DNA from: Planctomycetota bacterium
GTDB taxonomy: Bacteria; Planctomycetota; Brocadiia; Brocadiales; Bathyanammoxibiaceae
DNA length: 64,000 nucleotides
Assembly (NCBI GenBank): GCA_023261505.1
Contig: JAHFOV010000002.1
Coordinates: 14,136 to 78,135, forward strand
Reading direction: 5' to 3'
This document shows positions 26,654-60,249 of this stretch, one piece after another. Every line of letters begins with the position of its first letter. Position 1 is the stretch's first letter. Under the pieces are notes generated by a model. The model saw only the letters and a list, made by a program, of their open reading frames with translations, did no database searches and was not told the DNA's origin. The position numbers and the translations under genes were made by a program.

Positions 26654-27559
26654 ATGCAAGAGATATTCTTTAAAGAAAGTTCACTGCTTACCCTGGAGAT
26701 GAGACTATTCTTTGCTGTGGTAGGACTCTATGTCCTGAGTTGTATTCTGCACCTCCTCCAGTTTGGTGTGAGTTCCATTATACCTTCGGTGCTGCCGCTG
26801 AGGAATTTTGCAATTGGCAGGATGGCCACCAAGACCCTGCTCCTGGCCGTACTTGCCCATACCCTGCTGATTATTTTGAGGGGCATAGAGGAGGGCCAGC
26901 CCCCTGTACAAAATAAATATGAATGTCTCTCCTGGTTTGCCTGGTGCAATACTTTTACTTATCTTTTTATACGGAGGAGATGGGCAGAGCTCACTACACC
27001 GGGAATCTTTGTAACCATGCTCTCCATAGCCGCCCTCTATATAAGTATAAACAAGTATAGTCCGTTGGTTACACCCCTTGCCCCAGCTCTACAAAGCCCT
27101 TGGTACTTCTGGCATGTCCTTATAGCCTTTGGTGCCTATGCGGTGTTCGTGGTGGGTTGCTCTGTGGAATTATCTTACGTCATAATAAAGGCACTGGGGG
27201 CCGCAAAGAGGACGTGGGAGGATTACGGACTTCCATCTTTAGAAGTAGAAACCTTTCACAGGTTGTCTTACGTTCTGATACTGATGGGATTTCCATTATT
27301 AACCTTCGGTATGATTTCAGGTGCAGCCTGGGCGGACGAGGCCTGGGGAAGGTACTGGTCGTGGGACCCATTTGAGATACTGTCACTCATAACCTGGACG
27401 GCCTTTGCCATGTACCTGCACACTATGTCTCTACCAAAGTGGAGGCCAGTGTGGGGCTCGGTCTTTTGTCTGGTTGGCTTCTCCTGCATGCTAATTACCT
27501 TTATGGGGTCTGGCTTCCTGACTAAACTATTTGGCCTTTACAGCATGCATGCCTATTAA
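26654..27559 (+). CDS. ccsA: System II cytochrome c biogenesis protein CcsA/ResC
   Basis: Trp-rich haem-handling motif 'WADEAWGRYWSWDPFE'. Multi-TM. Confidence 0.85.
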   Translation: MQEIFFKESSLLTLEMRLFFAVVGLYVLSCILHLLQFGVSSIIPSVLPLRNFAIGRMATKTLLLAVLAHTLLIILRGIEEGQPPVQNKYECLSWFAWCNTFTYLFIRRRWAELTTPGIFVTMLSIAALYISINKYSPLVTPLAPALQSPWYFWHVLIAFGAYAVFVVGCSVELSYVIIKALGAAKRTWEDYGLPSLEVETFHRLSYVLILMGFPLLTFGMISGAAWADEAWGRYWSWDPFEILSLITWTAFAMYLHTMSLPKWRPVWGSVFCLVGFSCMLITFMGSGFLTKLFGLYSMHAY

Positions 27560-27562
27560 GCT

Positions 27563-27623
27563 AGTAGGGAGTAGGCAGTAGACAGTAGGTAGTTTTTACT
27601 TCCTTACTGCTTACTTCCTACTG
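27563..27623. repeat. family E heptamer-periodic inverted repeat between ccsA and resB
   Basis: 'agtagggagtaggcagtagacagtaggtag ttttt acttccttactgcttacttcctactg'. Confidence 0.75.
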
Positions 27624-27644
27624 TTAAAAAGGAATTATAAAAAT

Positions 27645-39337: not shown

Positions 39338-40420
39338 CTACTGTCTAGTTTCTACTGTCTTTGATTCTAACTCAAATTTCCCCCTCTTATGCTCATACTT
39401 TGGTAAATTAAGCTCGGCTACCCTGGTGATGTATTCCTGAGTGGTAATAGAGGTGTACCAGTGTCCATTATACCTTGCCCAGGTGGTGACACCAGCAAAG
39501 ATGCCCAGTAAAAGGATAGCATAGAGGGCATAATGCACATTGCCTTTGGCTCCTGCCACCTTCATTTCCAGGGCCCCTGGTACTGGGCAGGCGTTGAGGC
39601 AATCGTAACAGTGCCAGCATTCGGGTGAGATTTCTCTCTTTACCTTATCCACAGGCAGGAGTACAGGGCATGCCCTCCGGCAGGCCCCGCAGTTAATACA
39701 TTTTTGCTCATTCCGTGTCACCCTGACCCCGAAAGGGTTGTTGTAGTGCAGTAACCCCAGGAATGCGCCGTAAGGGCACAAGTATCTGCACCAGAAATTC
39801 TTGGTAATGAAGGACAGGGCAACTAAGACAGACAGAACAATGAGGGTGTTATTGTTCATACTGGTGAAGAACTGTAACATCTTTATATCTGCCACCCGGA
39901 TATAAGGTACCTCTCTGTAGAAGCGCTCCAGAAAACTCCCGTCCATCTTTATCAGTATCTGGTAAAGGAAGAAGAAGAGCATTAAATACTTCAGGCTCCT
40001 AAGTGCCCAGTCCGCTGTCTTTGGTAAGGTGTAGTTTTTGCCCAAAATCTGTTTGCCACCCATCCAAAGCCACTCTGAGAAGGTACCCACTGGGCATATC
40101 CAGCTACAAAAGCCCCTCCCTATGAAAAAGGCTATTACAAGTACCGAGGAAAGGATGACGAACCCTGCTGGATGAATGGGGTCAATCTTTCCTGAGACAA
40201 GGAAGTACTTGAGTCCAATCAATGCCCCTATTGGCAAAAAGGCCTCCACCCCTGGGGGCCTGGCTACATAGGGGAGCGTCCCGCCTGACTTACAGTACTC
40301 CACAAATAGATAAAACTTGTAACCAAGAAATAGGACAAAGAGGAAGAAGAACAATTGTACCGACCAACGTACCCTCTGGGAGTTTATTTTCAGGTTTTGA
40401 ATATATTTTGAAACATCCAT
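39338..40420 (-). CDS. membrane-bound 4Fe-4S polyferredoxin (NapH/MauN-like)
   Basis: Multi-TM with 'CINCGACRRACPV' and 'CWHCYDCLNACPV'. The ATG at 40420 lies after AAGGAGG. Confidence 0.7.
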   Translation of the reverse strand: MDVSKYIQNLKINSQRVRWSVQLFFFLFVLFLGYKFYLFVEYCKSGGTLPYVARPPGVEAFLPIGALIGLKYFLVSGKIDPIHPAGFVILSSVLVIAFFIGRGFCSWICPVGTFSEWLWMGGKQILGKNYTLPKTADWALRSLKYLMLFFFLYQILIKMDGSFLERFYREVPYIRVADIKMLQFFTSMNNNTLIVLSVLVALSFITKNFWCRYLCPYGAFLGLLHYNNPFGVRVTRNEQKCINCGACRRACPVLLPVDKVKREISPECWHCYDCLNACPVPGALEMKVAGAKGNVHYALYAILLLGIFAGVTTWARYNGHWYTSITTQEYITRVAELNLPKYEHKRGKFELESKTVETRQ

Positions 40421-40680
40421 AAAAAACAAACCTCCTTAAGAAATAAAACAACATCATTATTATAAGGTATAATTTTAAGGGCAGTCAAGGCCTTACTGCA
40501 GATAGGTCTTCTTGACCGACCTAAAGGGTATATACCTAGTCGTGTAAGGTGTCTTAAAAAGCACCCTATTACTCACCCTCCCCCTTCCCCCTCCCTTGAA
40601 GGGAGGGGGATTAATTGTTGTTTCCATAAAGGAAAGGGGGCATACTCCACGTTACCTTATCCCTTTACGCTTGACACGTT

Positions 40681-40710
40681 AGCTAAAGCTTTGATACAAT
40701 CTGCTTTATA
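40681..40710 (+). promoter_or_regulatory. sigma-70 promoter with extended -10 upstream of the central-carbon gene array
   Basis: TTGACA (40681-40686), an 18-nt spacer ending in TG-n, then TACAAT (40705-40710). Lies about 70 nt upstream of the ATG at 40783. Confidence 0.6.
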
Positions 40711-40782
40711 AAAGGGTGACTTAGGCGGAATCAGGAGGAACTATTCTAAGCACCTGTACTTGCGAACCTTAAGGAGTTAAAA

Positions 40783-42195
40783 ATGTTACGTTTTAATGAA
40801 CGCAGACGCAGCCTGGAACAGGATGACTATAGATTTGAACTCCAGGATGTAAAGGAGCCCAATCTCTATAGGGATATGTTCTCTTATGGGCAGATACCTA
40901 AAATACCTTTTAACTACCGCCTTAGTCCTATGGACCCTCCAGAGAATATATGGATTACTGACACTACCTTCCGCGATGGACAGCAGTCAAGGCCTCCTTT
41001 CACCGTAAAGCAGATTGTTGACCTCTATGACCTTCTACACCAACTAGGGGGAAAACAAGGGCTCATAAGGCAGTGCGAATTCTTCCTTTACACTGACAAG
41101 GACAAGGAGGCTGTTGTTAAATGTCTCGAGAGGGGTTACAAATATCCAGAAGTTACTGGGTGGATAAGGGCCAACAAAAATGATTTTAAACTAGTGAAAG
41201 AAATGGGGCTGAAGGAGACAGGGATCCTCACCTCTGCCTCTGATTACCATATTTTCTACAAGCTGGGTAAGACCCGCCGCCAGGCCCTGGAGAGTTACCT
41301 GGACATTGTGAGGGCAGCCTTGGAAGTAGGCATCATCCCTCGCTGCCACTTTGAGGATATTACCAGGGCAGACTTTTATGGATTTGTAGTCCCCTTTGCC
41401 CAGGAACTAATGAAACTTTCAGAAGAGAGTAAGATACCAATAAAAATACGTGCCTGTGACACAATGGGCTACGGAGTTGGCTATCCCGGTGCTATGCTAC
41501 CTAGGAGCGTACCTGGTATAGTTTATGGCCTCAGCCATTTTGCTAAGGTACCTCCCCAAAACCTTGAATGGCATGGCCACAACGATTTCTATAAGGCGGT
41601 CTCTAATGCTACCACCGCCTGGCTTTATGGCTGTAGTGGTGCTAACGGCACAATACTTGGTATTGGTGAGCGTACTGGAAACACCCCCTTAGAGGCCCTT
41701 GTTATTGAATATATGGCTTTAAGGGGTGACGATAGCATTGATACGACTATTATTACCGATATAGCAAATTACTTCAGAAAAAAGATAGGTTGCGAGATTC
41801 CACCCAATCAACCCTTGGTGGGGTCCCACTTTAATGTAACCCTAGCTGGCATACATCTGGATGGCCTTCTCAAGAATGAAGAAATATATAACATCTTTGA
41901 TACCAGGAAGCTGCTCAAGATACCCCCAGGGGTAGCGGTCAACGACAAATCCGGGGTAGCTGGGATCGTTCACTGGATAAAGGTCAACCTTAATGTCCAG
42001 AGGGAAGATTTAACTAAGTCCCATCCTGGCATTATAAGGATAAAAGATTGGGTAATGGAACAGTATGCCAAAGGCAGGATAACGGTTATATCTGACGAAG
42101 AGATGATGGAGCAGGTCAAAAAGCACCTACCAGAACTTTTTGAATCGCCTCGGGAGGCTAGCGAGAGCCTTGAGACTGTACGAACACCAGGCTAG
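40783..42195 (+). CDS. HMGL-like/DRE-TIM acyl-CoA condensing enzyme (Re-citrate synthase / homocitrate synthase family)
   Basis: 'WITDTTFRDGQQS' and 'EWHGHNDFYKAVSN' metal-ligand motifs. TCA-gene context favours Re-citrate synthase, but substrate cannot be assigned from sequence alone. Confidence 0.7.
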   Translation: MLRFNERRRSLEQDDYRFELQDVKEPNLYRDMFSYGQIPKIPFNYRLSPMDPPENIWITDTTFRDGQQSRPPFTVKQIVDLYDLLHQLGGKQGLIRQCEFFLYTDKDKEAVVKCLERGYKYPEVTGWIRANKNDFKLVKEMGLKETGILTSASDYHIFYKLGKTRRQALESYLDIVRAALEVGIIPRCHFEDITRADFYGFVVPFAQELMKLSEESKIPIKIRACDTMGYGVGYPGAMLPRSVPGIVYGLSHFAKVPPQNLEWHGHNDFYKAVSNATTAWLYGCSGANGTILGIGERTGNTPLEALVIEYMALRGDDSIDTTIITDIANYFRKKIGCEIPPNQPLVGSHFNVTLAGIHLDGLLKNEEIYNIFDTRKLLKIPPGVAVNDKSGVAGIVHWIKVNLNVQREDLTKSHPGIIRIKDWVMEQYAKGRITVISDEEMMEQVKKHLPELFESPREASESLETVRTPG

Positions 42196-43336
42196 GGAGA
42201 TATTACAAGGCTACGTCACTTGTATACCTAAAAGCAGCACCATATTCAAACCTGAAGAGGCAGAGGAGGCTTTCCTTAAGCTTGGTCAGCCCAGGGCAGT
42301 GATAAAGGCCCAGGTATTGACAGGGGGTAGGGGTAAGGCTGGGGGCGTGAAGATAGTAAATAGTCCGGCAGAGGCAAAGGATTTTGCTAAAAGGCTGCTG
42401 GGCTCAAGATTAGTAACGCCTCAAACCACACCAGAAGGAGAGGAAGTTAAGGCGCTACTCTTCCAGGAAGTCATCTCTATCCAGCGGGAATTGTATCTAG
42501 CCTTTCTCATTGACAGGCAGAGGGCATGTTCTTTGCTTGTGGGGTGTGGAGAAGGGGGTGTAGAAATAGAAGAACTGGCCAGGAAAGCCCCAGAAAAGGT
42601 CTTAAAGGATCCCTGGGATAGCTTGCAAGGTTTGCTCCCCTTCCAGGCCAGAAGGACAGCCTACTTTATGGGCTTATCAGGTTCTTATCTCAAAGAAGCA
42701 GCCAGCTTGATACTGGGCCTTTCAAGGGCTTTTATTGAAAAGGAACTCACTCTTCTAGAAATTAACCCCCTGGCCGTCACCTCTGAAGGGTCTTTGTCTA
42801 TATTGGATGTTAAAGCTAATTTTGATGACAACGCCTTTTTTCGCCATCAGGAGATGGTAGCCATAAGGCCCAGGGCAGAGGAATCTCTGGAGGCCCTTGC
42901 CTCCAGCTTTGGTTTGAGCTATGTGGGGTTAGAGGGGAATATAGGGTGCCTGGTGAATGGAGCGGGACTTGCCATGGCTACTAATGACATTATCAGGGTC
43001 TGCGGGGGTAAGCCGGCTAATTTTCTTGACGTAGGTGGAGACGCCTCTACTGAAAGAGTGACCCAGGCTTTCAGTATCTTGCTGCGGGACCCAAGGCTGA
43101 GGGCAGTCTTAGTAAATATTTTTGGTGGTATAACTCGTTGTGATACCATTGCTAAGGCAATCCTGGAGGTCTTAAAGGATACACCTCTCCGTATTCCTAT
43201 GATACTAAGGATGGAAGGAACTAATGCCTTAGAAGCAAGGAAAATGCTAGAGGGTTCTGGTCTTCCATTTCGCTTTTCCAGGGAAATGAAAGAAGCAACC
43301 TTACTGGCAATAGAAGCTGCTGAAATAAAAGAATAA
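42170..43336 (+). CDS. sucC: succinyl-CoA synthetase (ADP-forming) beta subunit
   Basis: The TTG at 42170 gives a canonical 'MRLYEHQAREIL' N-terminus (the ORF-track start is TTG 42140). 'KAQVLTGGRGKAGGVK' and 'NIFGGITRCD'. Confidence 0.85.
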   Translation: MRLYEHQAREILQGYVTCIPKSSTIFKPEEAEEAFLKLGQPRAVIKAQVLTGGRGKAGGVKIVNSPAEAKDFAKRLLGSRLVTPQTTPEGEEVKALLFQEVISIQRELYLAFLIDRQRACSLLVGCGEGGVEIEELARKAPEKVLKDPWDSLQGLLPFQARRTAYFMGLSGSYLKEAASLILGLSRAFIEKELTLLEINPLAVTSEGSLSILDVKANFDDNAFFRHQEMVAIRPRAEESLEALASSFGLSYVGLEGNIGCLVNGAGLAMATNDIIRVCGGKPANFLDVGGDASTERVTQAFSILLRDPRLRAVLVNIFGGITRCDTIAKAILEVLKDTPLRIPMILRMEGTNALEARKMLEGSGLPFRFSREMKEATLLAIEAAEIKE

Positions 43337-43371
43337 GGAAAAACTGCTAAAACAACCATAGGGGAAAGACA

Positions 43372-44586
43372 ATGAAAAGGATAATAGTGAAATTGACCTG
43401 CCTGCTTGCAATACTTTTCGTAAGCTCCTTTTTGGCAAAAGGAGTAAAGGCTCAAGTACACGACTATGTATACGACTACGAGAGGATGAGTAGGGCAGTC
43501 GTATCTATGTTGAATGCGGTGGAGAATTTTATTGCGGTGAATATAGATGTAATAGACTGCAATAATGCATTTATAGGGAAACCTATTCCTAAAGATGCGG
43601 CTTGCAACTACAAAGGAATCAATCCAGAGGGGGGTTGCATGAGGATAGGTAAAGAGCTTACCCAAAGGACGGGGATAAAGGTCAAATTTGCTTCCGAAGG
43701 GAAAGGGAAACTGGGCCTAAGGAACAAAGAGAATACGCCAGATGAATGGGAAAGCAACCAGTTGAAAAAGTTTGCAACCATTCGCTACCCGAAGGGCGTA
43801 GGTTTTGGAGAGGTTGAAATGATAAAAGAAACTTTAGACGTACAATACCGCTACATCTATCCTCTTTATGTAGAACCGTCATGCCTGAAATGCCATGGTG
43901 ACCCAGCGACTAGCCCAACAAAGGATGGCAAAGATGTTACAGGAAATACGATGGAAGGCTATAAGTTAGTAGAACTTATAGGTGCTATTAGCATAGTATC
44001 TCCTATAGAGGCGGAACCCACAACAGGGACAGAGGTGGTATTTTATGACTATAACAAAATGGCTAAGGTTATTATTAATCTTCTCCAGATGCCAGGTTAT
44101 TTTATGGCCAGGAATTTAGACGTAATTGACACCTATGGTGCCTTCTTAGGCAAGCCAGTTCCCCAAAACGAGCCCTCTAGCTATAAAGGAATTAACCCCG
44201 TTGCTTTTGCGAAAACGATTACCACGGAATTTGCTGCCAGCACCGGTATAAAGGCGAGGTTTATATCCGAAGGGAAAGGCTCATACGGTCCCAGAAACCC
44301 TTCCGAAGCTGCGCCTGATCCCTGGGAACTTATTCAGCTCAGGAAATACACGGAGAAAGCTCCCAATACAGAGGGTTATGGTGAAGTAATAAAGATTTCA
44401 GCCGTAGGCCTTACTGTTTACCGCTATTTCTACCCCCTTTACATAAACGAACTCTGCCAGAAGTGCCATGGGGACCCTGCAACCAGTCCTACCAGGGATG
44501 GTAAGGATATTACGGGCGCCTATATGGAAAATTACAAAGTCGGGGATCTCCGCGGCGGAATTAGCCTGACTTTCCCTGTGAAGTAA
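43372..44586 (+). CDS. secreted tandem DUF3365 (Tll0287-like) dihaem c-type protein
   Basis: Signal peptide. Two homologous halves each end in 'YRYxYPLY...[21 protein letters not shown]...Y...G.IS'. Confidence 0.75.
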
Positions 44587-44606
44587 TTCACGTCAGGCTG
44601 GATGGA

Positions 44607-45491
44607 ATGCAAATCGATCGCAACACGAGGGTCATCTGCCAGGGCATGACAGGGACGGCAGGGAGCTTCCATACCCGCCTTATGAAGGAGTATGGAACAA
44701 AAATAGTGGCTGGGGTTACACCTGGAAAGGGGGGTACCTTCCATGAAGGGATACCAGTTTACGATACAGTTCTGGAAGCTGCTAAAAAAACAGACGCCGA
44801 GGCCAGTGTAATATTTGTCCCTGCCCCTTTTGCCCCTGATGCCATAATGGAGGCGGTGGAGGCTGGCCTTCGCCTTGTAGTATGTATTACAGAGGGCATT
44901 CCGGTCCATGACATGGTCAGGGTTAAGAGATACTTAGCTGAAAGGAACGCTTATCTCATCGGCCCCAACTGCCCGGGAATCACAGTGCCCGGGCAAGCCA
45001 AAATAGGTATAATGCCTGGCTATATACATACCCCTGGTATAGTGGGTGTGGTCTCACGCAGTGGTACCCTTACTTATGAGGTAGTATGGCAGCTAACACA
45101 GCGTGGCATAGGCCAGTCTACCTGTATTGGTATAGGAGGTGACCCAATCCTGGGAATGAGCTTTGTAGACGTCCTGAGGCTCTTTGAAGAGGATAGCGAA
45201 ACCCACGCCATTATCCTCATAGGAGAGATAGGGGGCGTTATGGAAGAAGAGGCAGCTAGCTACATCCGATCCGCCGTAAAAAAACCCGTAATCAGTTTTA
45301 TTGCTGGCAGAAATGCCCCCAGGGGGAAGCGAATGGGCCATGCCGGGGCAATAATAGAAGGAGGAATGGGTACATGGCAGAGCAAGGCAGAGGCCCTAAA
45401 AGAAGCAGGAGTTCACGTGATTGATAACCCCGCTGAGGTAGGCGTTAAAGTATGGACATTATTTAGAGAAACTGGGCTTATAAAAGTTTAG
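44607..45491 (+). CDS. sucD: succinyl-CoA synthetase alpha subunit
   Basis: '[14 protein letters not shown]', 'SRSGTLTYE' and the phosphohistidine loop 'MGHAGAII'. Confidence 0.9.
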
Positions 45492-45512
45492 TAAATATTT
45501 TATAATATTTGC

Positions 45513-45734
45513 ATGGCGCGCCAAAGGAAGGGTGAAGTTGCTATAAATCATAATTACTGCAAGCGGTGCAATATCTGCCCTCAGTTCTGTCCCACTAAGA
45601 ACCTTGAGATCGTAGGAGGAAAGCTGGTGTCTTATGATAGGTGCATTGCTTGTTTTGCTTGTGAGAGATATTGCCCCGATCTCGCCATAGAGGTGGTTAA
45701 AATATACCATGTCGAAACAACTCCTGCAGGGTAA
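45513..45734 (+). CDS. 2-oxoacid:ferredoxin oxidoreductase delta (2x[4Fe-4S] ferredoxin) subunit
   Basis: 73 aa with 'CKRCNICPQFCP' and 'CIACFACERYCP'. Precedes the alpha, beta and gamma genes. Confidence 0.75.
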   Translation: MARQRKGEVAINHNYCKRCNICPQFCPTKNLEIVGGKLVSYDRCIACFACERYCPDLAIEVVKIYHVETTPAG

Positions 45735-46749
45735 TCAGGCCATAGTGATAGCGGCAGAGAGGGCCGGCTTAGGCTTCTTTGCTGGCTATCCCATCACCCC
45801 TGCCTCTGAGATACTTCATGAACTGGTGGGTAGAAAGTACATAAAGGTCATGCAGATGGAGGACGAGATAGCCTCCATAAATGCCTGTATAGGGGCCTCC
45901 CTTGCTGGGCTTAAGGTCATGACGGCTACCAGTGGGCCCGGTTTCTCCCTCATGCAGGAGAGCATAGGGCTAGCCCACATGATGGAAGTCCCTATGGTAA
46001 TAGTAAATGTACAAAGGGTAGGACCCAGCACAGGGATGCCGACCTTCCCCGCCCAAGGTGATATTATTCAGGCAAGGCACGGCAGCCATGGAGACTACTT
46101 CCCTATAATCTTTTATCCCAACTCTGTTGAAGAGATCTACCGACATACATTCAGTGCCTTTAACGCCGCCGAAGAGTCCCTTAGTCCTGTTCTACTCCTC
46201 AGCGATGGCTACATTAGCCACCTGTACGAAACCGTGGAGCTTACGAACTATCCAGTTGTACAGAGGGGCAGACCACCTCTAGGCGCAGGTAACCGTCACT
46301 TTACTGGTCTTACCCATAAGGACTCGTGCCCCGTAACCTCAAGCCCTGAGGTGCACAGAACCCTTCTAGCCCACTTCCAAAAGAAGTGTATGCAGACCTG
46401 CGCAAACTACAACTTTTATGAATATATTGAAAACGACACGGCAGATACCCTTTTGATAGCCTTCGGTGCCCTATCAAGGGCCATTTACAATTTTAAGGAT
46501 AAATATGGCGTTTTCAGGCCCATCAGGCTTTTCCCCATGATAGAAGAATTAAAGGACTTCGCTTCCCGATACGAATACATTGTAGTCCTGGAAATGAACA
46601 CTGGCCAATATTGTTATGAGGTAGAAAGCCTTCTGCACAGAGAGGTGGAGCTACTGGCCCTGCCTGGAGGCAAAATAGACATTAAGGAAATAAGCGACAA
46701 ACTTCAGGAATTAAGACAGGCATCATCTAAACAGGTAACGATAAACTAA
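45709..46749 (+). CDS. 2-oxoacid (probably 2-oxoglutarate):ferredoxin oxidoreductase alpha subunit
   Basis: 'GNQAIVIAAERAGLGFFAGYPITPASEI' and 'TATSGPGFSLMQE'. The 2-oxoglutarate assignment rests only on sucCD/fumarase context. Confidence 0.8.
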   Translation: MSKQLLQGNQAIVIAAERAGLGFFAGYPITPASEILHELVGRKYIKVMQMEDEIASINACIGASLAGLKVMTATSGPGFSLMQESIGLAHMMEVPMVIVNVQRVGPSTGMPTFPAQGDIIQARHGSHGDYFPIIFYPNSVEEIYRHTFSAFNAAEESLSPVLLLSDGYISHLYETVELTNYPVVQRGRPPLGAGNRHFTGLTHKDSCPVTSSPEVHRTLLAHFQKKCMQTCANYNFYEYIENDTADTLLIAFGALSRAIYNFKDKYGVFRPIRLFPMIEELKDFASRYEYIVVLEMNTGQYCYEVESLLHREVELLALPGGKIDIKEISDKLQELRQASSKQVTIN

Positions 46750-46762
46750 GCAGGCGATAAAC

Positions 46763-47512
46763 ATGGAAGACACTATGCGTTTCAAGCGCTTCCTGAAGGA
46801 AGAGAACCTGCCCACCCCATGGTGTCCGGGCTGTGGTAACGGCCAGATTCTTAAGTCAGCATGCCAGGCCTTTGAAGAACTCAATTTTGATAAGCGACAG
46901 GTAGTCATCGTCTCTGGCATAGGATGCGCGGGCAGGAGCGCTGGTTTCTTTGACATGGACTCAGTCCATACTGCCCACGGTAGGGCTATCCCTGTTGCTG
47001 AGGGTATAAAAACCGCCAATGAGAACCTGAAAGTTGTTGTACTGAGCGGAGACGGAGATCTACTGGGCATAGGTGGCAACCATCTCCTTCATGCCACAAG
47101 GCGAAATACCCCCATCTCTATTATCTGCTACTCCAACGAGATATACGGTATGACCGGTGGCCAGGTCTCTCCCACTACCAGACTAAATACCAAGACCGTC
47201 ACCACGCCCGAAGGCAACAAAGACTGCCCTGTCAACGTTCAAGCTATTATCAAGGCCCACAACTGCTTCTATGCAAGAAGTACTACCTTTCATCTAGCAC
47301 ACCTTAAAAAAAGCATTATTGAGGCACTGAGACACCCCGGTCTTTCCTTTGTAGATGTTATATGCCAGTGCATCGTCAATAACGGTCGCCGCGTAGGGTT
47401 CAAAGACGCTTTTGAGATGCTTATGTACTATAAGAACAATTATAAAATTAACGACAATACCGAACTTCTAAAAGAGAACGAGATAGGAATAACCCGATGG
47501 ACTTCAGCGTAG
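46763..47512 (+). CDS. 2-oxoacid:ferredoxin oxidoreductase beta (TPP) subunit
   Basis: 'WCPGCGNG', 'SGIGC' and 'VLSGDGDLLGIGGNH'. Confidence 0.85.
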   Translation: MEDTMRFKRFLKEENLPTPWCPGCGNGQILKSACQAFEELNFDKRQVVIVSGIGCAGRSAGFFDMDSVHTAHGRAIPVAEGIKTANENLKVVVLSGDGDLLGIGGNHLLHATRRNTPISIICYSNEIYGMTGGQVSPTTRLNTKTVTTPEGNKDCPVNVQAIIKAHNCFYARSTTFHLAHLKKSIIEALRHPGLSFVDVICQCIVNNGRRVGFKDAFEMLMYYKNNYKINDNTELLKENEIGITRWTSA

Positions 47513-48480
47513 AGGTACTAAAAGAAAAAGATATAGAAGCCACACTGAACCTCTTTTATGAGAGCATTGAGGAAATCCACCCTGCCCGCCCCAAGGAGGA
47601 CATGCAGCACTTCAAGGAAGGCTACACTGTTGCAAAACTTCGTAAAAGACTGTCCAATGAAAATTGTGTTTACCTGGTAGCCAAGGAGAAAGAAAAGGTC
47701 GTAGGGTACGTTTTTGCTTGGCTAACCGAAGGCGTGGGAGACATCCACTGGTTTGCCATTGACAAGAATTATAGAGGCAAGGGTTACGGTCACCAAATCC
47801 TGGAAAGAACCTTAAGGGAATTCCAGAGGAAAGGATGCCACGAGGGCAGGGTGTTTATCTACCCTCAAGATACCCCTGCCTATAGACTATTGGAACACCT
47901 GGGCTTCTTCCAGAAGGCCTACATAGAGGAGAAATTCTTTGGCATAGACCTTATCCTTATGGTAAAAGTCTTAGCCAAACCTCTCAGGCCGATAGTAAAA
48001 AGGATAATCCTGGCAGGAGAGGCTGGCCAGGGTATCAAGCTTATGGCTCAAGCCCTGGCTAACATACTGGCTAAGATGGGCAAGGAGGTCACCCTGAATG
48101 TCCTCTACGATGCCACAGTAAGGGGAGGAGAAATTACTGCCGAACTTATCTTCTCGGATGAAAAGATAGAGACACCTTTCTTTGAGAAGGCTGACCTATG
48201 CCTGGAGCTAGCCAAATCGTCCAAGAGAACCTTTGCTGCCGAGAGACACATCCTGGAGGCCTCTATCCTCGAAAGAGTGGCAGAAGAAAGGATACCATTT
48301 GAAAAAGAGGCCATTGAGAAATTCGGCAGCCCCATCTTCATAAATATGATTGCTCTTGGTAGGCTCCTCAGGGATATTGGCATTCCAATTGATAAAGTAG
48401 ACTTTCGTGCCACCCTCCCAGCAAGATTTCTTGAAGAAAACGTAAAGGCAATAAAGTATGGGTACACTTATCAGGATTAA
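47497..48480 (+). CDS. fusion protein: GNAT N-acetyltransferase domain plus OFOR gamma subunit
   Basis: N-terminal half has 'VGYVFAW...WFAIDKNYRGKGYGHQILERTL' (GNAT motif A). C-terminal half has 'IILAGEAGQGIKLMAQALA' (gamma subunit). Confidence 0.7.
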   Translation: MDFSVEVLKEKDIEATLNLFYESIEEIHPARPKEDMQHFKEGYTVAKLRKRLSNENCVYLVAKEKEKVVGYVFAWLTEGVGDIHWFAIDKNYRGKGYGHQILERTLREFQRKGCHEGRVFIYPQDTPAYRLLEHLGFFQKAYIEEKFFGIDLILMVKVLAKPLRPIVKRIILAGEAGQGIKLMAQALANILAKMGKEVTLNVLYDATVRGGEITAELIFSDEKIETPFFEKADLCLELAKSSKRTFAAERHILEASILERVAEERIPFEKEAIEKFGSPIFINMIALGRLLRDIGIPIDKVDFRATLPARFLEENVKAIKYGYTYQD

Positions 48481-48524
48481 ATCTCATCTGACTTGTGGCA
48501 AGGGTCTTCGCGGAGCTTATAAAA

Positions 48525-49367
48525 ATGCGCCAGATAGAGGCTAGCACCATAACCCAAACCGTAGAAAAACTTTGTATAGATGCTAACTATTTCCTGGGAC
48601 AGGATGTCATTGATGCCCTGGAAAGGTCTCTTAAGACAGAAGAATTCTGTATCGGCCAGCGAATCATAAGAGACATCCTTGAAAATGCCAGAATAGCCCG
48701 CGAGGAACTTGCTCCCTTATGTCAGGATACTGGTTTCACGGTGGTCTTCGTAGAATTAGGCCAAGAGGTAGAAATTGTAGATGGTAATTTGAAAGAGGCT
48801 ATTACCAAAGGTGTAAGTCAGGGATACACTAAAGGCTATCTAAGGGCCTCAATTGTTAAAGACCCTTTAAAACGTATTAATACAAAAGATAATACTCCGC
48901 CCTTTATTCATATAGATGCAATACAAGGAAAGCAATTAAAACTTACCATCATGTGTAAAGGTTCGGGCTGTGAAAATATGAGCCGCCACATCATGCTTAC
49001 CCCAGCCCAGGGAAGAAAAGAGATTGTAGATTTTGTGGTGGAAACCGTTGTAAGAGGAGGTGGCAGACCTTGTCCTCCGCTAATTGTGGGAGTGGGTTTG
49101 GGAGGCACCTTCGAGTATTCCGCCTATATGGCAAAGAAAAGCCTTCTCAGGCCTGTGAGTTCCCACCATCCTGAACCACATATTAAGGAACTGGAAGAGG
49201 AGCTCTTTGAAAAGGTGAATAACACTGGCTTGGGTCCGCAGGCATGGGGTGGCAGGGCTACCGCCCTTGCAGTTCACGTGGAGACCTGTCCCACCCATAT
49301 CGCCAGCCTCCCTGTCGCAGTAAATATTGAGTGCCACTCACATCGTGTAAAAACAGTAACTTTATGA
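48525..49367 (+). CDS. class I fumarate hydratase (or tartrate dehydratase) alpha subunit
   Basis: 'CQDTGFTVVFVELGQ' and 'VGVGLGGT'. ATG at 48525, with an alternative GTG at 48495. Confidence 0.8.
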   Translation: MRQIEASTITQTVEKLCIDANYFLGQDVIDALERSLKTEEFCIGQRIIRDILENARIAREELAPLCQDTGFTVVFVELGQEVEIVDGNLKEAITKGVSQGYTKGYLRASIVKDPLKRINTKDNTPPFIHIDAIQGKQLKLTIMCKGSGCENMSRHIMLTPAQGRKEIVDFVVETVVRGGGRPCPPLIVGVGLGGTFEYSAYMAKKSLLRPVSSHHPEPHIKELEEELFEKVNNTGLGPQAWGGRATALAVHVETCPTHIASLPVAVNIECHSHRVKTVTL

Positions 49368-49939
49368 TGGAAAAAAACATCGTGTCAGAAGAAATTATAC
49401 ATATAAAGGCACCATTAGATGAAAAAACAGTTTTGAGCCTCAGGGCAGGCCAATTGGTACTTTTTGATGGAATCTTTTATACTGCCAGAGACGCTAGCCA
49501 TAAGCTGCTGATAGAACTTATAGAACAAGGCAAGCCCCTCCCTTTTGACCTCCAGGGACAGGTCATATATTATGTGGGCCCTACCCCTGCTAGACCCGGC
49601 AGGGTAATAGGCTCTGCGGGACCTACTACCAGCTCCCGCATGGATTCCTTCATGGAGCCGCTTTTACAAAGAGGATTAAAGGGTACCATAGGTAAAGGGA
49701 ATCGTTCCCAGGAAGTCATTGACCTTTTGAAGAAATACAAGGCCGTGCACTTTTCCAACATTGGAGGTGCAGCGGCCCTTATTGCCAAAAGCATAAAAAA
49801 ATGTGAAATGGTCGCCTTTGAAGACCTTGGTACAGAGGCCATTTACAGAATGGAGGTAAAGGACTTCTTCGCTGTAGTTGCCTACGACACCACGGGTAAT
49901 GACTTGTATATGGAAGCCATTAAAAGATACGGTCGCTAA
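49364..49939 (+). CDS. class I fumarate hydratase beta subunit
   Basis: 'GPTPARPGRVIGSAGPTTSSRMD' and 'GKGNRS'. The ATGA overlap with the alpha stop sets the start at 49364. Confidence 0.8.
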   Translation: MMEKNIVSEEIIHIKAPLDEKTVLSLRAGQLVLFDGIFYTARDASHKLLIELIEQGKPLPFDLQGQVIYYVGPTPARPGRVIGSAGPTTSSRMDSFMEPLLQRGLKGTIGKGNRSQEVIDLLKKYKAVHFSNIGGAAALIAKSIKKCEMVAFEDLGTEAIYRMEVKDFFAVVAYDTTGNDLYMEAIKRYGR

Positions 49940-53355: not shown

Positions 53356-55605
53356 TTGGCGGTGGTTCTGATACTATTGGGTGAGCAAGTCAAGGCGTGG
53401 CGTAAGAATAAAAGAGGGGTCCTTATCGTGCCAAAGGCAGTTGTGTCATGGCTTAGGCAAATTTACCGTGGCGAACTTTTGGCAGGTCCGCTGTGGTTGA
53501 CATTTGTCTTATGTCTCTTCCCTGTTACCAGCCTTCAGTTTAGTATTTCACCGTTGAAGGCAGAGGTAACCTCTCCACCCACTGCAGAGATTGAGAGATG
53601 GATACGACAGCTATATTCTCCGGATGTGACAATTCGTAGTTCGGCTGCTATCTCCCTCCTTTATACAGACCATCCAGCGGCCCTTGAGTCCCTGCTGAAT
53701 ATCTTGAAGAGTGCACCTCCCCCTGCCAGTATGCAGGTAGTGGATAAGACACAAGAAAAGGAGGTACTGATTTCCGTTATCAAGACCTTTGGTTTTAAGG
53801 GGGACGACAGAGCAGTAATACCTCTTATGGAACTCCTTCAGAGAGACGAGCCTGAGGTGAGAGAGGCGGCCTGTCAAAGTCTAGGGAGGCTCCGCACGCA
53901 CAGGGCAATAGAGCAGATGGCCGTTAAGCTCCAGGAGCCTAAATACACGGTGGTGGCGAAAGTGCTTCTTATAAAGGCCCTGGGGCAAACGAGGGATAAG
54001 GAGGCAGTGGAACCACTTCTGGCCCTCTTGGGGGCAAAGGAAGTGGCTGGACAACCACCGACGAAAGAACTTAGGGAGGCCGCACTTGAATCCCTTAGCC
54101 TTCTGGCCATGCAATCCTTTGGTACAAATATTGACAAGTGGCAAGCCTGGTGGAACCTCAACAAGGGGAAGTCCAGGGAGCAGTGGTTGGCAGATACAGT
54201 GGATAGGTTAGAAGAGGCTAATAAGGAGTTAAGGACTGAGAATGAATCCCTGAAAAAAGAAGTGGCTCAGAAGACCATTGCCTTGCTATCTGAGGCTGTA
54301 GAGCAAAAGAACATAAAGCCTCTATTAGAAGCCATGAAACAGGGGCATACAGATGTACGGCTTTTTGCTATCAAAGAGATTACTAAATTAGATGACTCCA
54401 GCGTAATTCCCGACCTAGTTGTCCTTCTGGCTGATAAAGAAAAGGACGTGCGTGCGTCGGCGGTTCAAGCCCTTGGGGAGATTGGTGATGAGAAGGCCAT
54501 AGATCCCTTACTAATTGCATTAAAGGATGAAGATGCTTTAGTAAGAGAAAAGGCCGCAAGGGCACTCGGGAAATTTCGTACTAGCTCAGTGGTGGATGCC
54601 TTAATAGATAGCCTAAAACATGATAGTACCTTTGTGTTAATAGCGGCTTGCGAGTCTCTTGGGCAGATGGGTAATAACAAGGCGGTAGATTCGCTAGCTG
54701 ACCTCTTGAGCAACGAGGATGCAAGGGTAAGAGAAAGTTCTGCTGTGGCCCTGGGTAGACTCAAAGACCAAAGGGCCGTTGCACCCCTTGTTGTCGCCTT
54801 GAATGATAAGGAAGAGAGGGTAAGATGGTATGCAGCCGATAGCCTGGGTAATCTAAGGGATGAACAGGCAGTAGAGCCTCTAGCAGGGTTGCTTTCTGAT
54901 AAGGTAGCTAGAGTCAGGGAGGCAGCGGCCGGGGCGCTTGGCAAGATTGGGAGCGAGAAGGCCTTTGAACCCTTACTAAAGGTGCTTACAGATCAGGATA
55001 AGAAAGTGGTGGAACAAGCCTCCGAGTCCTTGCTGGGCATAAAAATAGAGTCGTTCGATGCCCTCGGTAAACTTGCTGATGTCTTATATGATAACAAAGA
55101 TTACACGCGCGCCAGCCAGGTTCTGGAGAGGCGGCTTTCCCAGTTTTCTACTTCAGAAAATCATAAGGAAAGGCTCTGGGACAGCCGTCTCAAATTGGCC
55201 AGAATATACTACCTCCAGAAGGACTGGCAGAAGGCGATGACCCTATATGATGGACTTTCAGAATATGATAAGGCAGATATGGAGATAAAAGTGGAACTTG
55301 CCCAGTGCTTAAAGGAGATGAAGCAGTATGACCGCCTTTTGGAGCTTTACGGCCGATGGATGAAAGAACTACCAGAGCAATCAAGAGAATGGTGGAAAGG
55401 GAGAGTAGAGGTTTTGAACAGTCTTTTTGAACAGGGTAATTATACCAGGGTAGCAAAGATAGTAGACACTTTTTTGGTGGAAGACCCAGGACTAGGTGGT
55501 CCTGATTTCAAGGCCAAGTTCTTGGAGCTCGCTGAAAGGAGCATTCACAAAACTAACTCCACCAATACCCTTGGAAGTAAAGGCAAGGGGCTAGCAGTTC
55601 CCTAA
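53356..55605 (+). CDS. membrane-anchored HEAT-repeat (PBS-lyase type), coiled-coil and TPR-like protein
   Basis: Many 'D..VR..AA.ALG.(I/L)GD..A(V/I).PL' HEAT units, a central coiled coil and an N-terminal hydrophobic anchor. The start (TTG) is uncertain. Confidence 0.7.
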   Translation: MAVVLILLGEQVKAWRKNKRGVLIVPKAVVSWLRQIYRGELLAGPLWLTFVLCLFPVTSLQFSISPLKAEVTSPPTAEIERWIRQLYSPDVTIRSSAAISLLYTDHPAALESLLNILKSAPPPASMQVVDKTQEKEVLISVIKTFGFKGDDRAVIPLMELLQRDEPEVREAACQSLGRLRTHRAIEQMAVKLQEPKYTVVAKVLLIKALGQTRDKEAVEPLLALLGAKEVAGQPPTKELREAALESLSLLAMQSFGTNIDKWQAWWNLNKGKSREQWLADTVDRLEEANKELRTENESLKKEVAQKTIALLSEAVEQKNIKPLLEAMKQGHTDVRLFAIKEITKLDDSSVIPDLVVLLADKEKDVRASAVQALGEIGDEKAIDPLLIALKDEDALVREKAARALGKFRTSSVVDALIDSLKHDSTFVLIAACESLGQMGNNKAVDSLADLLSNEDARVRESSAVALGRLKDQRAVAPLVVALNDKEERVRWYAADSLGNLRDEQAVEPLAGLLSDKVARVREAAAGALGKIGSEKAFEPLLKVLTDQDKKVVEQASESLLGIKIESFDALGKLADVLYDNKDYTRASQVLERRLSQFSTSENHKERLWDSRLKLARIYYLQKDWQKAMTLYDGLSEYDKADMEIKVELAQCLKEMKQYDRLLELYGRWMKELPEQSREWWKGRVEVLNSLFEQGNYTRVAKIVDTFLVEDPGLGGPDFKAKFLELAERSIHKTNSTNTLGSKGKGLAVP

Positions 55606-58530: not shown

Positions 58531-60249
58531 CTAGAGGCAAGGTTTGGCATTTTCCAATTTATCATTCAGCGCCGCCATGAACTTTTCTAAATCTACCCCA
58601 TGGAACTGGCAGGCCGCTTCTAGAGTAACCATTTTTGCCATAGTCCGCCTGGCAACAGGGTTAGCTATCTGATGAAAGCCAAACTGAAGGAATACCTCCA
58701 TGGTTTCTGGATATTGTTCTATAACATCTGCTACTTTTGTATCTTTGGTAATCTTTTCCAGCTTCTTTGTGGGGCAAGCCTCTAAGGGTTCTTCCTTTAG
58801 ATTCATGGTTTTCCAGAGATTGTAGGCAAAAAGGCTAAGTGCGGTGACTTCTATCCATCCAGAGGCACCTACCGCAGGATAGGCTATTGCTGGATACTTG
58901 GTGACTAATAACTGGAAAAACACTCGGAGGATAATACCCAGGTTTAACAAAAAGAAGGTAAGCTCAGATAGCCTGAAGCTGTACAAGTTTACCCCTCTGA
59001 ATGTAGGAACCATCTTGGAGGAATAACCTATCATCATCATAGATATAAAGCCCACTGTTACTGCGTGGTTAGAAGACCCATGAAAAAGGTGGCCTGTAGG
59101 GGTGGATGCTCCTCCCAGGGAAGGTACAATAACCCGTATCAGTAGGCCTACTATCAACCAAAAGTAGGCGGCTCGTATAGTTTTTTCATAGCTCCTGTCC
59201 ATAATAACATCGGCCAGTTCCTTTGTAGGCTTCTCAAAGACCCTAAGGCCATAAATAAATAGGAAGATCGCCCCTGCCAGGCTGTAAGTGAGCCAGGAAG
59301 ATAGATACTCGAAAAAGTAGAGGAATATAGAGGCATTTATGACCCAAAAGGCCAGGTTAACCAGTGAGGGATTAGGCCTTGGAACGTCCAGAAAGGCGTA
59401 GACCGTCCTCAAATTTACACCAAAAATGAACATGCAGACGAAGCCAAAGAGAAAGACGTGTATTAGCTGTTTGTTAAAGGAAGAAGGTATCTCCATAGTG
59501 GAGTGCTGGTAAAGGTACAGGTCTATGTACAGGTTTTGGACTGTGGCAGCAAAGAACCAAATAAGTCCGGCTACAAAAAATTTATCAAAGATTTCTTTGG
59601 GTAATTGGCTTGATTTTACAGTTCCAAAAAGGACGTAGCAGAATATTAAGACCCCAAGTAGTTGCAACGCACCCGAGACCGGTATAAGTATAGCCAGGGA
59701 AGTTCCTGGCTGGGTCTGTAAAAGGGTCCTCAGCACAGTACCCACCAGCACCGTCCAGAAACTAAGGTAAGTAATCTTCCAGGCATAAAGGTCGGTATTC
59801 TTTACCCTAGGCAGGATGTAGTAGGCAAAACCCATGATAAAGAGGCCCACCCAGCCATAGAGCTGTGCATGGGCATGAGACTGAATAAGAATAATAGGGG
59901 GTATATAATAATCAAACTTTAGGGCAATGTAGCTAAGGAGGCCGGCACCAAAAGTGCAACCGAGCGTGAGGCAGATTATAAGGGCGGTCTTAATGTAGCG
60001 ATAGTATATAATATCTTCCACTATTGGAGGTGGGATCATTCCAGGGACTGGTCCCTTGTTTATAGCTTCCTCCAGTTCTTTCAGCAAGGTTTCCAGGTCA
60101 ACATCATGCGCTTTACAAAAGAAAGCCAAGGGTTCATTTGGTCCCCTTACCCCACCTGCTAGGATAAGCCTGTGGCGTTTGAAGACTTCAAAAGTTTGCG
60201 GGTGCTTGACTATAATGTCTTTTATGATGGAGTTTTTGTCTATTTGCAT
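58531..60249 (-). CDS. DUF1858 - NnrS-like polytopic membrane domain - DUF1858 fusion protein
   Basis: N-terminal 'IIKDIIVKHPQTFEVFKRH' and C-terminal 'VADVIEQYPETMEVFLQFGF...TLEAACQFHGVDLEKFMAALN' are ScdA_N/DUF1858-like. The core has about 12 TM segments with 'SHAHAQLYGWVGLFIMGFAYY', resembling the NnrS 'HAHEMLFGF' motif. Confidence 0.55.
   Translation of the reverse strand: MQIDKNSIIKDIIVKHPQTFEVFKRHRLILAGGVRGPNEPLAFFCKAHDVDLETLLKELEEAINKGPVPGMIPPPIVEDIIYYRYIKTALIICLTLGCTFGAGLLSYIALKFDYYIPPIILIQSHAHAQLYGWVGLFIMGFAYYILPRVKNTDLYAWKITYLSFWTVLVGTVLRTLLQTQPGTSLAILIPVSGALQLLGVLIFCYVLFGTVKSSQLPKEIFDKFFVAGLIWFFAATVQNLYIDLYLYQHSTMEIPSSFNKQLIHVFLFGFVCMFIFGVNLRTVYAFLDVPRPNPSLVNLAFWVINASIFLYFFEYLSSWLTYSLAGAIFLFIYGLRVFEKPTKELADVIMDRSYEKTIRAAYFWLIVGLLIRVIVPSLGGASTPTGHLFHGSSNHAVTVGFISMMMIGYSSKMVPTFRGVNLYSFRLSELTFFLLNLGIILRVFFQLLVTKYPAIAYPAVGASGWIEVTALSLFAYNLWKTMNLKEEPLEACPTKKLEKITKDTKVADVIEQYPETMEVFLQFGFHQIANPVARRTMAKMVTLEAACQFHGVDLEKFMAALNDKLENAKPCL

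Follow-up and report, generated by a model that had tools for sequence, protein, structure and literature searches.

A predicted exported two-domain haem protein of the sCache_haem family encoded between sucC and sucD in deep-branching anammox bacteria

In canonical sucCD operons, the genes for the two orthodox subunits of succinate-CoA ligase lie on the same strand with tight spacing. The same arrangement is found in the 64,000-nucleotide (nt) stretch of DNA analyzed here (the window; positions 14,136 to 78,135 of contig JAHFOV010000002.1, assembly GCA_023261505.1, from a Planctomycetota bacterium), except that sucC and sucD are separated by 1.2 to 1.3 kb encoding a putative exported haem protein, whereas in every genome we examined outside the clade with this insertion the two genes are adjacent, often 1 to 3 nt apart. 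The inserted gene, called X below, is an open reading frame (ORF) of 404 amino acids (aa) with an ATG start at positions 43372 to 44586 of the plus strand. Coordinates refer to the window unless a locus is named.

Both the best profile match and the best fold match of X, at an identity of only ~18%, is Tll0287 of Thermosynechococcus elongatus (PDB 5B82), the founder of the Pfam family PF11845. As we predict for X, Tll0287 is a stand-alone, exported protein that carries haem c at a CxxCH motif in a PAS/Cache-like fold. However, Tll0287 consists of one domain with axial ligation by Cys68 and His145, whereas X is a two-domain protein in which Pro/Glu or Pro/Val take the aligned positions. Moreover, Tll0287 is a cyanobacterial protein found with photosystem II preparations and not in an operon of the tricarboxylic acid (TCA) cycle, where X resides.

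The family was recently redefined as "sCache_haem", its fold being Cache rather than PAS (Deshpande et al., bioRxiv 10.64898/2026.02.01.703092). The same preprint places the 99% conserved CxxCH motif on a short inserted helix that precedes the last beta-strand, and counts roughly half of the members as stand-alone proteins. It describes a stand-alone Cys/His member from P. putida (Tll0287-like) as a weak binder of nitric oxide (NO), for which a redox role is proposed, and a Cys-less, HAMP-linked member from P. azotoformans as a tight binder (off-rate, ~6e-4 s-1) (bioRxiv 10.64898/2026.02.01.703092). Stand-alone "Cluster 1" proteins such as that of P. putida share with X the stand-alone architecture and a signal peptide, but the characterized Cluster 1 member is Cys/His-ligated, single-domain and a weak NO binder, in contrast with the Cys-less, two-domain X.

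Another set of relatives is fused to signaling modules. The P. azotoformans Cache_haem-HAMP protein, sensor domains of the Geobacter chemoreceptors GSU0582 and GSU0935, plus MCPs (methyl-accepting chemotaxis proteins) of Brocadia and Kuenenia (P0016 to P0084) belong to the domain family of X and likewise lack the axial cysteine; the sensor domains of the Brocadiaceae MCPs are in fact the nearest nonparalogous relatives of X, with 44 to 47% identity over the haem region. Unlike X, these receptors are membrane-anchored and have HAMP, MCP or kinase outputs, and the only demonstrated NO binder is the P. azotoformans receptor, with none among planctomycete members. Receptors of the GSU0935 type act as dimers. 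Such dimers parallel fused X, or the pair of separate genes, Xa and Xb, that takes its place in related genomes, and fused sCache_haem receptors are dimeric by size-exclusion chromatography coupled to small-angle X-ray scattering (bioRxiv 10.64898/2026.02.01.703092).

By functional analogy only, X also resembles cytochrome c', a soluble exported c-haem protein without an output domain that is thought to buffer or scavenge NO, and which served as the comparator for the spectra of Cys-less Cache_haem domains (Deshpande et al., bioRxiv 10.64898/2026.02.01.703092). The fold of cytochrome c' is a four-helix bundle with no homology to X, and for X the binding of NO is a prediction only. Two 2026 preprints, that of Deshpande et al. 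among them, mention neither tandem architectures nor the operon contexts of stand-alone members, nor Planctomycetes, nor anammox.

Domain content and predicted haem ligation of X

X begins 35 nt after the stop codon of sucC (42170 to 43336, plus strand; alternative TTG start at 42140) and ends 20 nt before the start of sucD (44607 to 45491, plus strand). The former, the beta subunit gene, matches NF001913 with 454 bits against a cut-off of 370, and the latter, the alpha subunit gene, matches TIGR01019 with 454 bits against 353. NF004230 is also matched by the succinate-CoA ligase genes flanking X (444 bits versus 336), and on these profile scores we regard the flanks as true equivalogs of the two subunits.

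The X protein matches PF11845 (Tll0287-like, formerly DUF3365) in two stretches, with E = 6.9e-41 and 140.5 bits against a curated cut-off of 24.1 bits. Its halves share 49% identity over 181 residues (E = 3e-61), and this internal duplication is also visible in the DNA as three families of direct repeats with a spacing of 573 nt. The N-terminal sCache_haem domain (aa 28 to 213; 43453 to 44010, plus strand) contains the PF11845 stretch 37 to 211, has 5b82 as its top fold match and groups in the domain tree described below as an ortholog of Xa; the C-terminal domain (aa 225 to 404 plus the stop codon; 44044 to 44586, plus strand) contains the second PF11845 stretch and is, by the same tree, orthologous to Xb. 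Between them lies an 11-residue linker (aa 214 to 224; 44011 to 44043, plus strand), which we compared with L007 (6815 to 6940), L051, L054 and L129. There are two CxxCH motifs on the plus strand, one per domain: CLKCH (C171-L-K-C174-H175; 43882 to 43896), invariant in 11 orthologs and 17 family members, and CQKCH (C362-Q-K-C365-H366; 44455 to 44469), whose two cysteines and histidine are invariant across the orthologs and after which 38 residues follow to the C terminus. Besides PF11845, Pfam yielded one sub-threshold cytochrome match, located at CxxCH. It revealed no signaling output domain or transmembrane region (HAMP, MCP, HisKA, GGDEF/EAL), and no transmembrane helix other than the cleavable signal peptide was seen in X.

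This signal peptide (aa 1 to 27; 43372 to 43452, plus strand), as read from the sequence, has a basic n-region, then a hydrophobic core of 14 residues and, before QVHDY, the cleavage motif V-K-A; a (V/G)-x-A↓Q cleavage pattern is retained in most X orthologs. In the AlphaFold2 (AF2) model, the segment forms a helix (residues 2 to 19) followed by a low-confidence stretch. We discarded a lipoprotein signal, there being no lipobox ahead of C10 (K-L-T-C), and a Tat signal, there being no twin-arginine motif. A Sec-type cleavable signal peptide would thus put X outside the cytoplasm, with periplasm and anammoxosome not distinguishable from each other. About 14 kb upstream of X, outside the TCA cluster, the window encodes CcsA and ResB/CcsB of system II cytochrome c maturation (26654 to 29108, plus strand; PF01578, E = 6e-37; PF05140, E = 2e-31). 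Since this is the machinery needed, the capacity to attach haem to X is encoded in the window itself, and we infer that X is exported and receives its haems from CcsBA.

X is therefore very probably an exported protein with two covalently bound c-type haems, one in each sCache_haem domain, and we hold this identity and the evolutionary history given below with the same high confidence. An earlier reading of the DNA without database searches (the sequence-only reading) had described a secreted tandem DUF3365/Tll0287 protein with two haem motifs between genuine sucC and sucD genes, and had suggested a PF11845 search as a check. The strong match in that search, the two CxxCH motifs and the subunit profiles bear it out. 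Its wording "PAS-like" named the right family, the fold of which is now classified as Cache (bioRxiv 10.64898/2026.02.01.703092).

The structural evidence agrees. Although the AF2 model of X is of moderate quality (predicted local distance difference test score [pLDDT], 70.8; predicted template modeling score [pTM], 0.70), its top Foldseek match is 5b82 (E = 6.6e-6; probability, 1.0; target template modeling [TM] score, 0.56), followed by the WalK Cache domain, the haem-c sensor GSU0935 and dCache receptors. The CxxCH motifs lie on helices 169 to 176 and 360 to 366, ahead of the last strands at 202 to 211 and 393 to 403. A phmmer search of X against PDB sequences returned zero matches, and a family profile was required to bridge the distance: a profile built from X-like domains matches Tll0287 (5b82) with E = 1.3e-5. 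As queries, P0112 finds 5b82 and P0094 misses it. No dCache Pfam match was obtained for X, and dCache structures align with it weakly (TM-score, 0.2 to 0.3). A dCache module builds on a single long N-terminal helix, and we do not consider X one, as its two modules are fused sCache_haem genes, each with its own N-terminal helix.

With respect to ligation, the axial Cys68 of Tll0287 aligns to the conserved proline of the family (direct alignment via P0112) or to the next residue (ungapped extrapolation). The equivalent residues of X are P85/E86 and P276/V277, and none of the orthologs has a cysteine there. Lacking the axial cysteine, X by its sequence falls outside the Cys/His subtype of Tll0287; it is stand-alone by architecture, yet groups by sequence among the Cys-less, sensor-type domains. 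The earlier label of "redox-sensor type" was thus correct as to the Tll0287/DUF3365 family but not as to the Cys/His ligation, X being closer to the Cys-less, NO-binding class ("Cluster 2"), where the missing axial cysteine would leave the distal site labile. Met194 and Met385, each about 19 residues past a CxxCH, are present without exception in the a/b, P0013-type and Brocadiaceae MCP domains; Tll0287 and the wider family have K, R or A at this position.

The pocket segments of the two domains differ, being KGINPEGG in the N-domain and KGINPVAFA in the C-domain. This difference is conserved, with "NPEG" in a/N-type and "NPV(A/T/N)F" in b/C-type domains, and suggests two nonequivalent haems. 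In addition, the N-domain of the window's X has three extra cysteines: C63 (43558 to 43560), C78 (43603 to 43605) and C89 (43636 to 43638). The X of locus L004, which is not sister to the window's X in the domain tree, also has three (C63, C78 and C88); in the remaining nine orthologs, the C63, C78 and C88/C89 positions are occupied by T, Y and A/G. C88/C89 lies 3 to 4 residues past the axial-Cys position of Tll0287 and, together with the other extra cysteines, may represent a convergent switch in haem ligation plus a disulfide.

Distribution and evolutionary history

For a view across relatives, loci were drawn from NCBI, JGI, ENA and Logan, yielding about 20 with X, all independently assembled. 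In the metagenome scan, the single X protein as query gave no relative, and an alignment of orthologs succeeded. An identical X protein is deposited under the metagenome-assembled genome (MAG) "Candidatus Hypogeohydataceae bacterium YC41"; Ca. Hypogeohydataceae is an aquifer anammox family of the class Brocadiia (bioRxiv 10.1101/2023.04.27.538623). Fused X is represented by 11 full-length sequences with 71 to 74% identity and, wherever the context is readable, occurs in the order HMGL-sucC-X-sucD-kor (L001 [JP1 MAG], L002, L003, L004, L047 to L050 and L130 to L132). A second tier of genomes, labeled "Candidatus Brocadiales bacterium" and with SucC 59 to 65% identical, has two separate genes of ~210 aa, Xa and Xb, in the sucC-sucD slot (L007, L051 to L056, L129, L133 and L134), each encoding one Tll0287-like domain with its own signal peptide.

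Every examined relative with a SucC identity of at least ~59% has the X gene or genes intact between sucC and sucD. At the third tier, where SucC is ~50% identical (Brocadia L126/L127, Brocadiaceae-type L135/L136 and Scalindua sediminis L128), sucC and sucD are 1 to 3 nt apart without X, while the neighboring HMGL or kor genes are recognizably the same. X is also absent from ~30 non-Brocadiia loci, in which sucC and sucD are adjacent. On these comparisons, the insertion is lineage-specific, being confined to two deep-branching anammox groups and not general to anammox TCA operons. The sequence-only reading had allowed for a fixed insertion and suggested a comparison of synteny. The former fits the uniform presence of X among the closer relatives; in the latter, no close relative had a contiguous sucCD or a decayed ORF, and Brocadia and Scalindua were contiguous without X.

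Three irregular entries came up in this survey. Positions 1 to 4750 of L047 read sucC-X-sucD' (~82 codons)-[sucC end]-X-sucD. Its initial 3.3 kb share 99.3% identity with L048 and the remainder comes from a population only 79% identical, its X matching P0005; most likely, two co-occurring populations were assembled into one chimeric contig, and L047 is no real duplication. In L056 (702 to 1274), which otherwise equals L051, Xa has an 18-aa in-frame deletion (KGINPEGFASMVGKEFAK) and has lost a conserved segment aligned with the distal haem pocket. Finally, P0131, a "SucC" of 580 aa, was considered as a SucC-Xa fusion and rejected, as it is the SucC of another organism with an internal assembly duplication.

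Pairwise Nei-Gojobori (NG86) omega values, which are crude at a synonymous divergence (dS) of ~1 to 2 near saturation, were 0.04 to 0.17 for X, 0.04 to 0.13 for sucC as well as for sucD, and 0.03 to 0.06 for the HMGL gene. Both CxxCH motifs and ~130 other positions are invariant across the X orthologs. As far as sequence can tell, X is functional and under purifying selection like sucC and sucD (omega, ~0.1).

The two-domain architecture is rare. A HMMER search of 1.84 billion representative proteins gave 680 matches at E up to 1e-3, and among the best 150 of these, only two aligned to both halves of X: the representative of the fused clade itself and P0244. The latter (417 aa, with CLMCHS motifs) is an independent tandem sCache_haem protein whose halves are far closer to each other than to X; its duplication is evidently recent and unrelated to X. 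Hence, a double sCache_haem architecture arose at least twice.

In a neighbor-joining tree of the individual domains (208 columns, 100 bootstraps), the N-halves of fused X group with the "a" genes (78%), the C-halves with the "b" genes (95%), and the two groups join each other (95%). The closest outgroups are the single-domain, stand-alone paralogs P0013 to P0015 (100%), followed by the Brocadiaceae/Kuenenia MCP sensor domains (100%). This grouping indicates that the duplication is older than every sucCD-embedded copy. For both domains, the fused clade has the split locus L007 as its sister (82% and 60%), which indicates that the fusion came later. The 11-residue linker of fused X takes the place of the Xa stop codon, a ~33-nt spacer and most of the Xb signal peptide, and the fused gene is 78 nt shorter than the span from Xa to Xb in L007. 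As to insertion, the contiguous sucCD of Brocadia-type genomes, of Scalindua and of the ~30 non-Brocadiia loci argues for one old event involving a cassette.

We therefore propose a three-step history. A P0013-like, single-domain stand-alone gene would have duplicated to give the Xa/Xb pair; this two-gene cassette would have entered the sucC-sucD junction a single time, in an ancestor shared by the two deep-branching anammox lineages, after their split from Brocadiaceae and Scalinduaceae; and in the Hypogeohydataceae lineage a net loss of ~78 nt would have removed the Xa stop, the spacer and most of the Xb signal peptide to leave a single chain of 404 aa. What had been read as an internal tandem duplication is, by the split clade and the domain tree, homologous in its two halves as supposed, but derives from the fusion of two older, separately exported genes. 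The GC content of X (0.42 to 0.46, versus 0.47 to 0.52 for sucCD) is inside the regional range, and the composition profile gives no sign of a recent transfer of X, which fits an old, ameliorated insertion.

One locus departs from the usual context. In L044 (1 to 3022), an Xa/Xb pair with a 4-nt overlap follows not sucC but a fragment of a multihaem cytochrome of the hydroxylamine oxidoreductase (HAO) type and a 123-aa ORF. At its 3' end, L044 has an Xb-sucD junction with a decayed sucD start (CQGMTG motif lost, ending in a stop codon). We considered L044 as an independent, non-suc home of Xa/Xb and rejected this, as the Xb-sucD junction is kept and the domains nest within the split clade; by these features it is a secondary rearrangement of the suc-embedded cassette.

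The paralogs outside sucCD have neighborhoods of their own. P0013, the sister single-domain paralog, is encoded in the same genome as X, where it adjoins two formate/nitrite transporter genes and is divergent from the gene of an NnrS/COX1/DUF1858 membrane protein (L045, 2185 to 4209, minus strand). A paralog of this membrane protein, with COX1-like, NnrS-like, DUF1858 and ScdA_N domains, all from NO-related families, is found in the window at 58531 to 60249 (minus strand). The linkage of the paralog to transporter genes is seen again in L057 and also, more distantly, in L113 and L114. Further single-domain paralogs of ~40% identity to X (L058, 62 to 4645; L061, 1125 to 6859) belong to a conserved gene set made up of a histidine kinase, response regulator(s), an Alginate_exp-type porin, the sCache_haem paralog itself and a dCache-HAMP-MCP gene, which suggests that some stand-alone sCache_haem members cooperate with signaling proteins. 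Collectively, these contexts point to nitrite/NO physiology and signaling for the subfamily and to nothing direct on X.

Probable co-transcription and possible roles of X

X belongs to a tight, same-strand cluster with the order HMGL-like gene, sucC, X, sucD, ferredoxin, alpha, beta, GNAT::gamma, two fumarase genes, phosphoglycerate mutase and pyrB, in which several neighboring genes overlap. A consensus scan placed the sole strong promoter-like and terminator-like sites of the region upstream of the first cluster gene, namely a sigma-70-like match (TTGACA-18-TACAAT with TG; 11/12 matches) at 40671 to 40700 and a terminator-like hairpin of the upstream unit (11-bp stem with 8 GC pairs) at 40586 to 40610, both on the plus strand; the same scan found no promoter-like or terminator-like site at the sucC-X or X-sucD junction. 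Across the fused clade, sucC and X are 10 to 35 nt apart and X and sucD 20 to 78 nt. With such spacing and no such sites at the junctions, co-transcription is the natural inference, and we consider it quite likely that X is transcribed together with sucC, sucD and the cluster. The sequence-only reading had come to the same expectation from gaps of 35 and 20 nt on one strand and from the lack of a flanking repeat or terminator hairpin, in agreement with our coordinates and our repeat and terminator scans. No repeats were found at the borders of the insertion, and the A-rich direct repeats D4 and D5 (16 to 20 nt), which lie inside sucC and sucD and not at these borders, were judged chance matches. 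A hairpin across the X stop codon (44562 to 44600) was rejected for its z of -1.3 and missing U-tract, nor is it conserved, with a consensus fold of -3.8 kcal/mol and no real covariation. An Rfam scan of 40000 to 46000 at E up to 1 returned zero matches.

Other junctions of the cluster carry lineage-specific insertions as well: between korC and the fumarase genes, a ThaI-like restriction-modification pair (L002, 13993 to 15585); between korD and korA, a DUF6247/ParE toxin-antitoxin pair (L004, 7498 to 8063) and two small ORFs (L002, 10403 to 11034); and between both fumarase genes, a transaldolase gene (L129, 15371 to 16240). These unrelated insertions imply that the TCA cluster tolerates passenger genes, from which X is distinguished by its age and selective constraint.

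The reading that we favor, with moderate confidence, is that X is a functional, co-transcribed, exported di-haem protein, ligand-accessible (NO) and/or redox-active, and built as a pseudo-heterodimer. It would be transcribed from the cluster promoter with the genes for the Re-citrate synthase-like protein, SucCD, 2-oxoacid:ferredoxin oxidoreductase and fumarase, exported unfolded and matured by CcsBA. In the periplasm or anammoxosome, it would act as a covalently linked pseudo-heterodimer with two nonequivalent pockets, of the NPEG and NPVxF type; we infer the packing of the two halves, for which the pTM of 0.70 is weak support. Given the missing axial cysteine, the missing output domain and, as nearest nonparalogous relatives, MCP sensor domains of the Cys-less class, the characterized member of which is a tight NO binder, the haems of X would most likely be ligand-accessible (NO) and/or redox-active. 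X may then serve as a soluble binder, buffer or carrier, or as the trans-acting partner of a membrane receptor, and not as a reporter to the TCA enzymes. The specific role of an NO-binding or redox-active soluble protein is a tentative proposal, to which we give a little less than an even chance, and the operon position of X gives co-expression, not demonstrated functional coupling.

Several points weigh against this reading. Haem binding, export, localization and any ligand of X are all deduced from sequence. The domain tree is a neighbor-joining tree of 208 columns with support of 60 to 82% at some key nodes, and the omega values suffer from the near-saturated dS. The published split assigns redox roles and not NO binding to stand-alone members, based on one protein per class (bioRxiv 10.64898/2026.02.01.703092). 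The invariant Met194 and Met385 could provide His/Met ligation, which would fit a plain electron carrier, and the nonconserved Cys89 of the window's X is one helical turn from the Cys68-equivalent position. Lastly, that X has been kept for so long at this exact place, flanked by two subunit genes, could be due to a functional link invisible to sequence analysis.

Such a link, as a coupling of the extracytoplasmic or anammoxosomal redox state to carbon flux, was one suggestion of the sequence-only reading; more fully stated, X would sense this state (or NO) and relay it to the TCA cycle and carbon flux, with a functional reason for its place between sucC and sucD. The position has indeed been kept over family-level divergence under purifying selection; the cluster encodes NO- and O2-sensitive iron-sulfur (Fe-S) enzymes, 2-oxoacid:ferredoxin oxidoreductase and class I fumarase; and family members are genuine sensors when fused to output domains, just as some stand-alone paralogs adjoin signaling genes. 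X itself, however, has neither an output domain nor a transmembrane helix past its cleavable signal peptide; no kinase, MCP, regulator or anti-sigma gene is present in or beside the cluster in ~20 loci; and an exported soluble protein would be unable to act on cytoplasmic enzymes without a partner. Furthermore, Brocadia and Scalindua run the same enzymes without X, and a cluster with unrelated insertions at other junctions tolerates passengers. We thus regard a coupling to carbon flux as distinctly improbable. Nor do we see X as a functionless or decaying passenger, or an artefact of assembly or annotation, a reading that can draw on the absence of the insertion from other anammox families, the Xa deletion in one population variant (L056), the decayed sucD start after one relocated copy (L044) and the probably chimeric contig L047. 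Reading frames intact in ~20 independently assembled loci from four sources, an omega similar to that of sucC and sucD, CxxCH motifs and ~130 positions invariant at 71 to 74% identity and conserved signal peptides effectively refute it.

A stronger competitor, albeit still an unlikely one, is that X is an ordinary soluble electron-transfer cytochrome of the anammox or respiratory chain, with two His/Met-ligated c haems, hitch-hiking on the TCA promoter. Anammox bacteria are rich in cytochromes c, no a/b, P0013-type or Brocadiaceae MCP domain lacks the methionine, the stand-alone members characterized to date act as redox proteins that bind NO weakly, and the derived Xa/Xb copy of L044 adjoins an HAO-type multihaem gene. 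Yet Tll0287 and the wider family have K, R or A in place of the methionine, so that it is no family-wide ligand, and it is shared by MCP-fused sensor domains, for which a role as plain electron carriers is improbable. By fold, X is a Cache ligand-binding scaffold and not a cytochrome, and there is no adjacent gene for a redox partner.

NO is a free intermediate in anammox bacteria. At its most specific, the favored reading would make Xa/Xb, fused here, an NO-binding haem protein of the anammoxosome or periplasm, with two deep anammox lineages having tied its synthesis firmly to the central-carbon cluster, a speculation that we rate as a long shot. If it were true, the amount of a buffer, carrier or scavenger of NO would rise and fall with anabolic capacity; X might protect the NO-sensitive Fe-S enzymes of the cluster or balance NO-based catabolism against carbon assimilation; and it would represent a stand-alone, Cys-less, heterodimeric class of Cache_haem proteins outside the division into stand-alone redox proteins and fused NO sensors. 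Stand-alone yet Cys-less by sequence, X is a counterexample to the newly proposed rule by which stand-alone members are Cys/His redox proteins and Cys-less NO binders occur among fused members only. With X, a rare two-domain sCache_haem architecture is documented as well, the two-gene intermediate of which is still alive in a sister clade, a natural example of how a heterodimer may become a single chain by gene fusion. For anammox biology, X adds a conserved and putatively exported haem protein that is restricted to the deep-branching lineages of aquifers and sediments, and for operon evolution, a case where the normally inseparable sucC and sucD were split by a foreign cassette and the split was kept through family-level divergence. 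What is new is a stand-alone family member with this architecture and ligation class, in a genomic position that is conserved though unusual; no major concept is changed.

Other genes of the cluster and its surroundings

The first gene of the cluster, the HMGL-like gene (40783 to 42195, plus strand; PF00682, E = 1.2e-30), scores under every NCBIfam cut-off for isopropylmalate, homocitrate and citramalate synthases. A Re-citrate synthase has been reported from anammox bacteria (PMC8027424, PMC8862662), and the HMGL-like gene probably encodes this enzyme. It adjoins sucC in all Brocadiia loci examined, Brocadia included, except Scalindua; in the window, its 3' end overlaps the sucC start by 26 to 56 nt.

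Downstream of sucD, the genes for a 2-oxoglutarate/2-oxoacid:ferredoxin oxidoreductase (45513 to 48480, plus strand) encode a korD-like ferredoxin, alpha, beta and GNAT::gamma, as judged by the Pfam families Fer4, POR_N, TPP_enzyme_C and Acetyltransf_1 plus POR. The last of these (47497 to 48480, plus strand) has a GNAT acetyltransferase domain fused N-terminally to the gamma subunit, and this fusion is kept from Hypogeohydataceae to Scalindua (L001, 12177 to 13160; L128, 8976 to 9989; L129, 13420 to 14415). The two subunits of a class I (Fe-S) fumarate hydratase follow at 48495 to 49939 on the plus strand (PF05681, E = 1e-106; PF05683, E = 7e-57).

Outside the cluster, a polyferredoxin-type membrane protein with two Fer4_5 motifs and a 4Fe-4S dicluster, NapH/NosR-like, is encoded divergently from the TCA genes at 39338 to 40429 (minus strand). 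Downstream of the cluster, a gene at 53356 to 55605 (plus strand) encodes a 749-aa protein that consists almost entirely of HEAT/PBS-lyase and TPR repeats.

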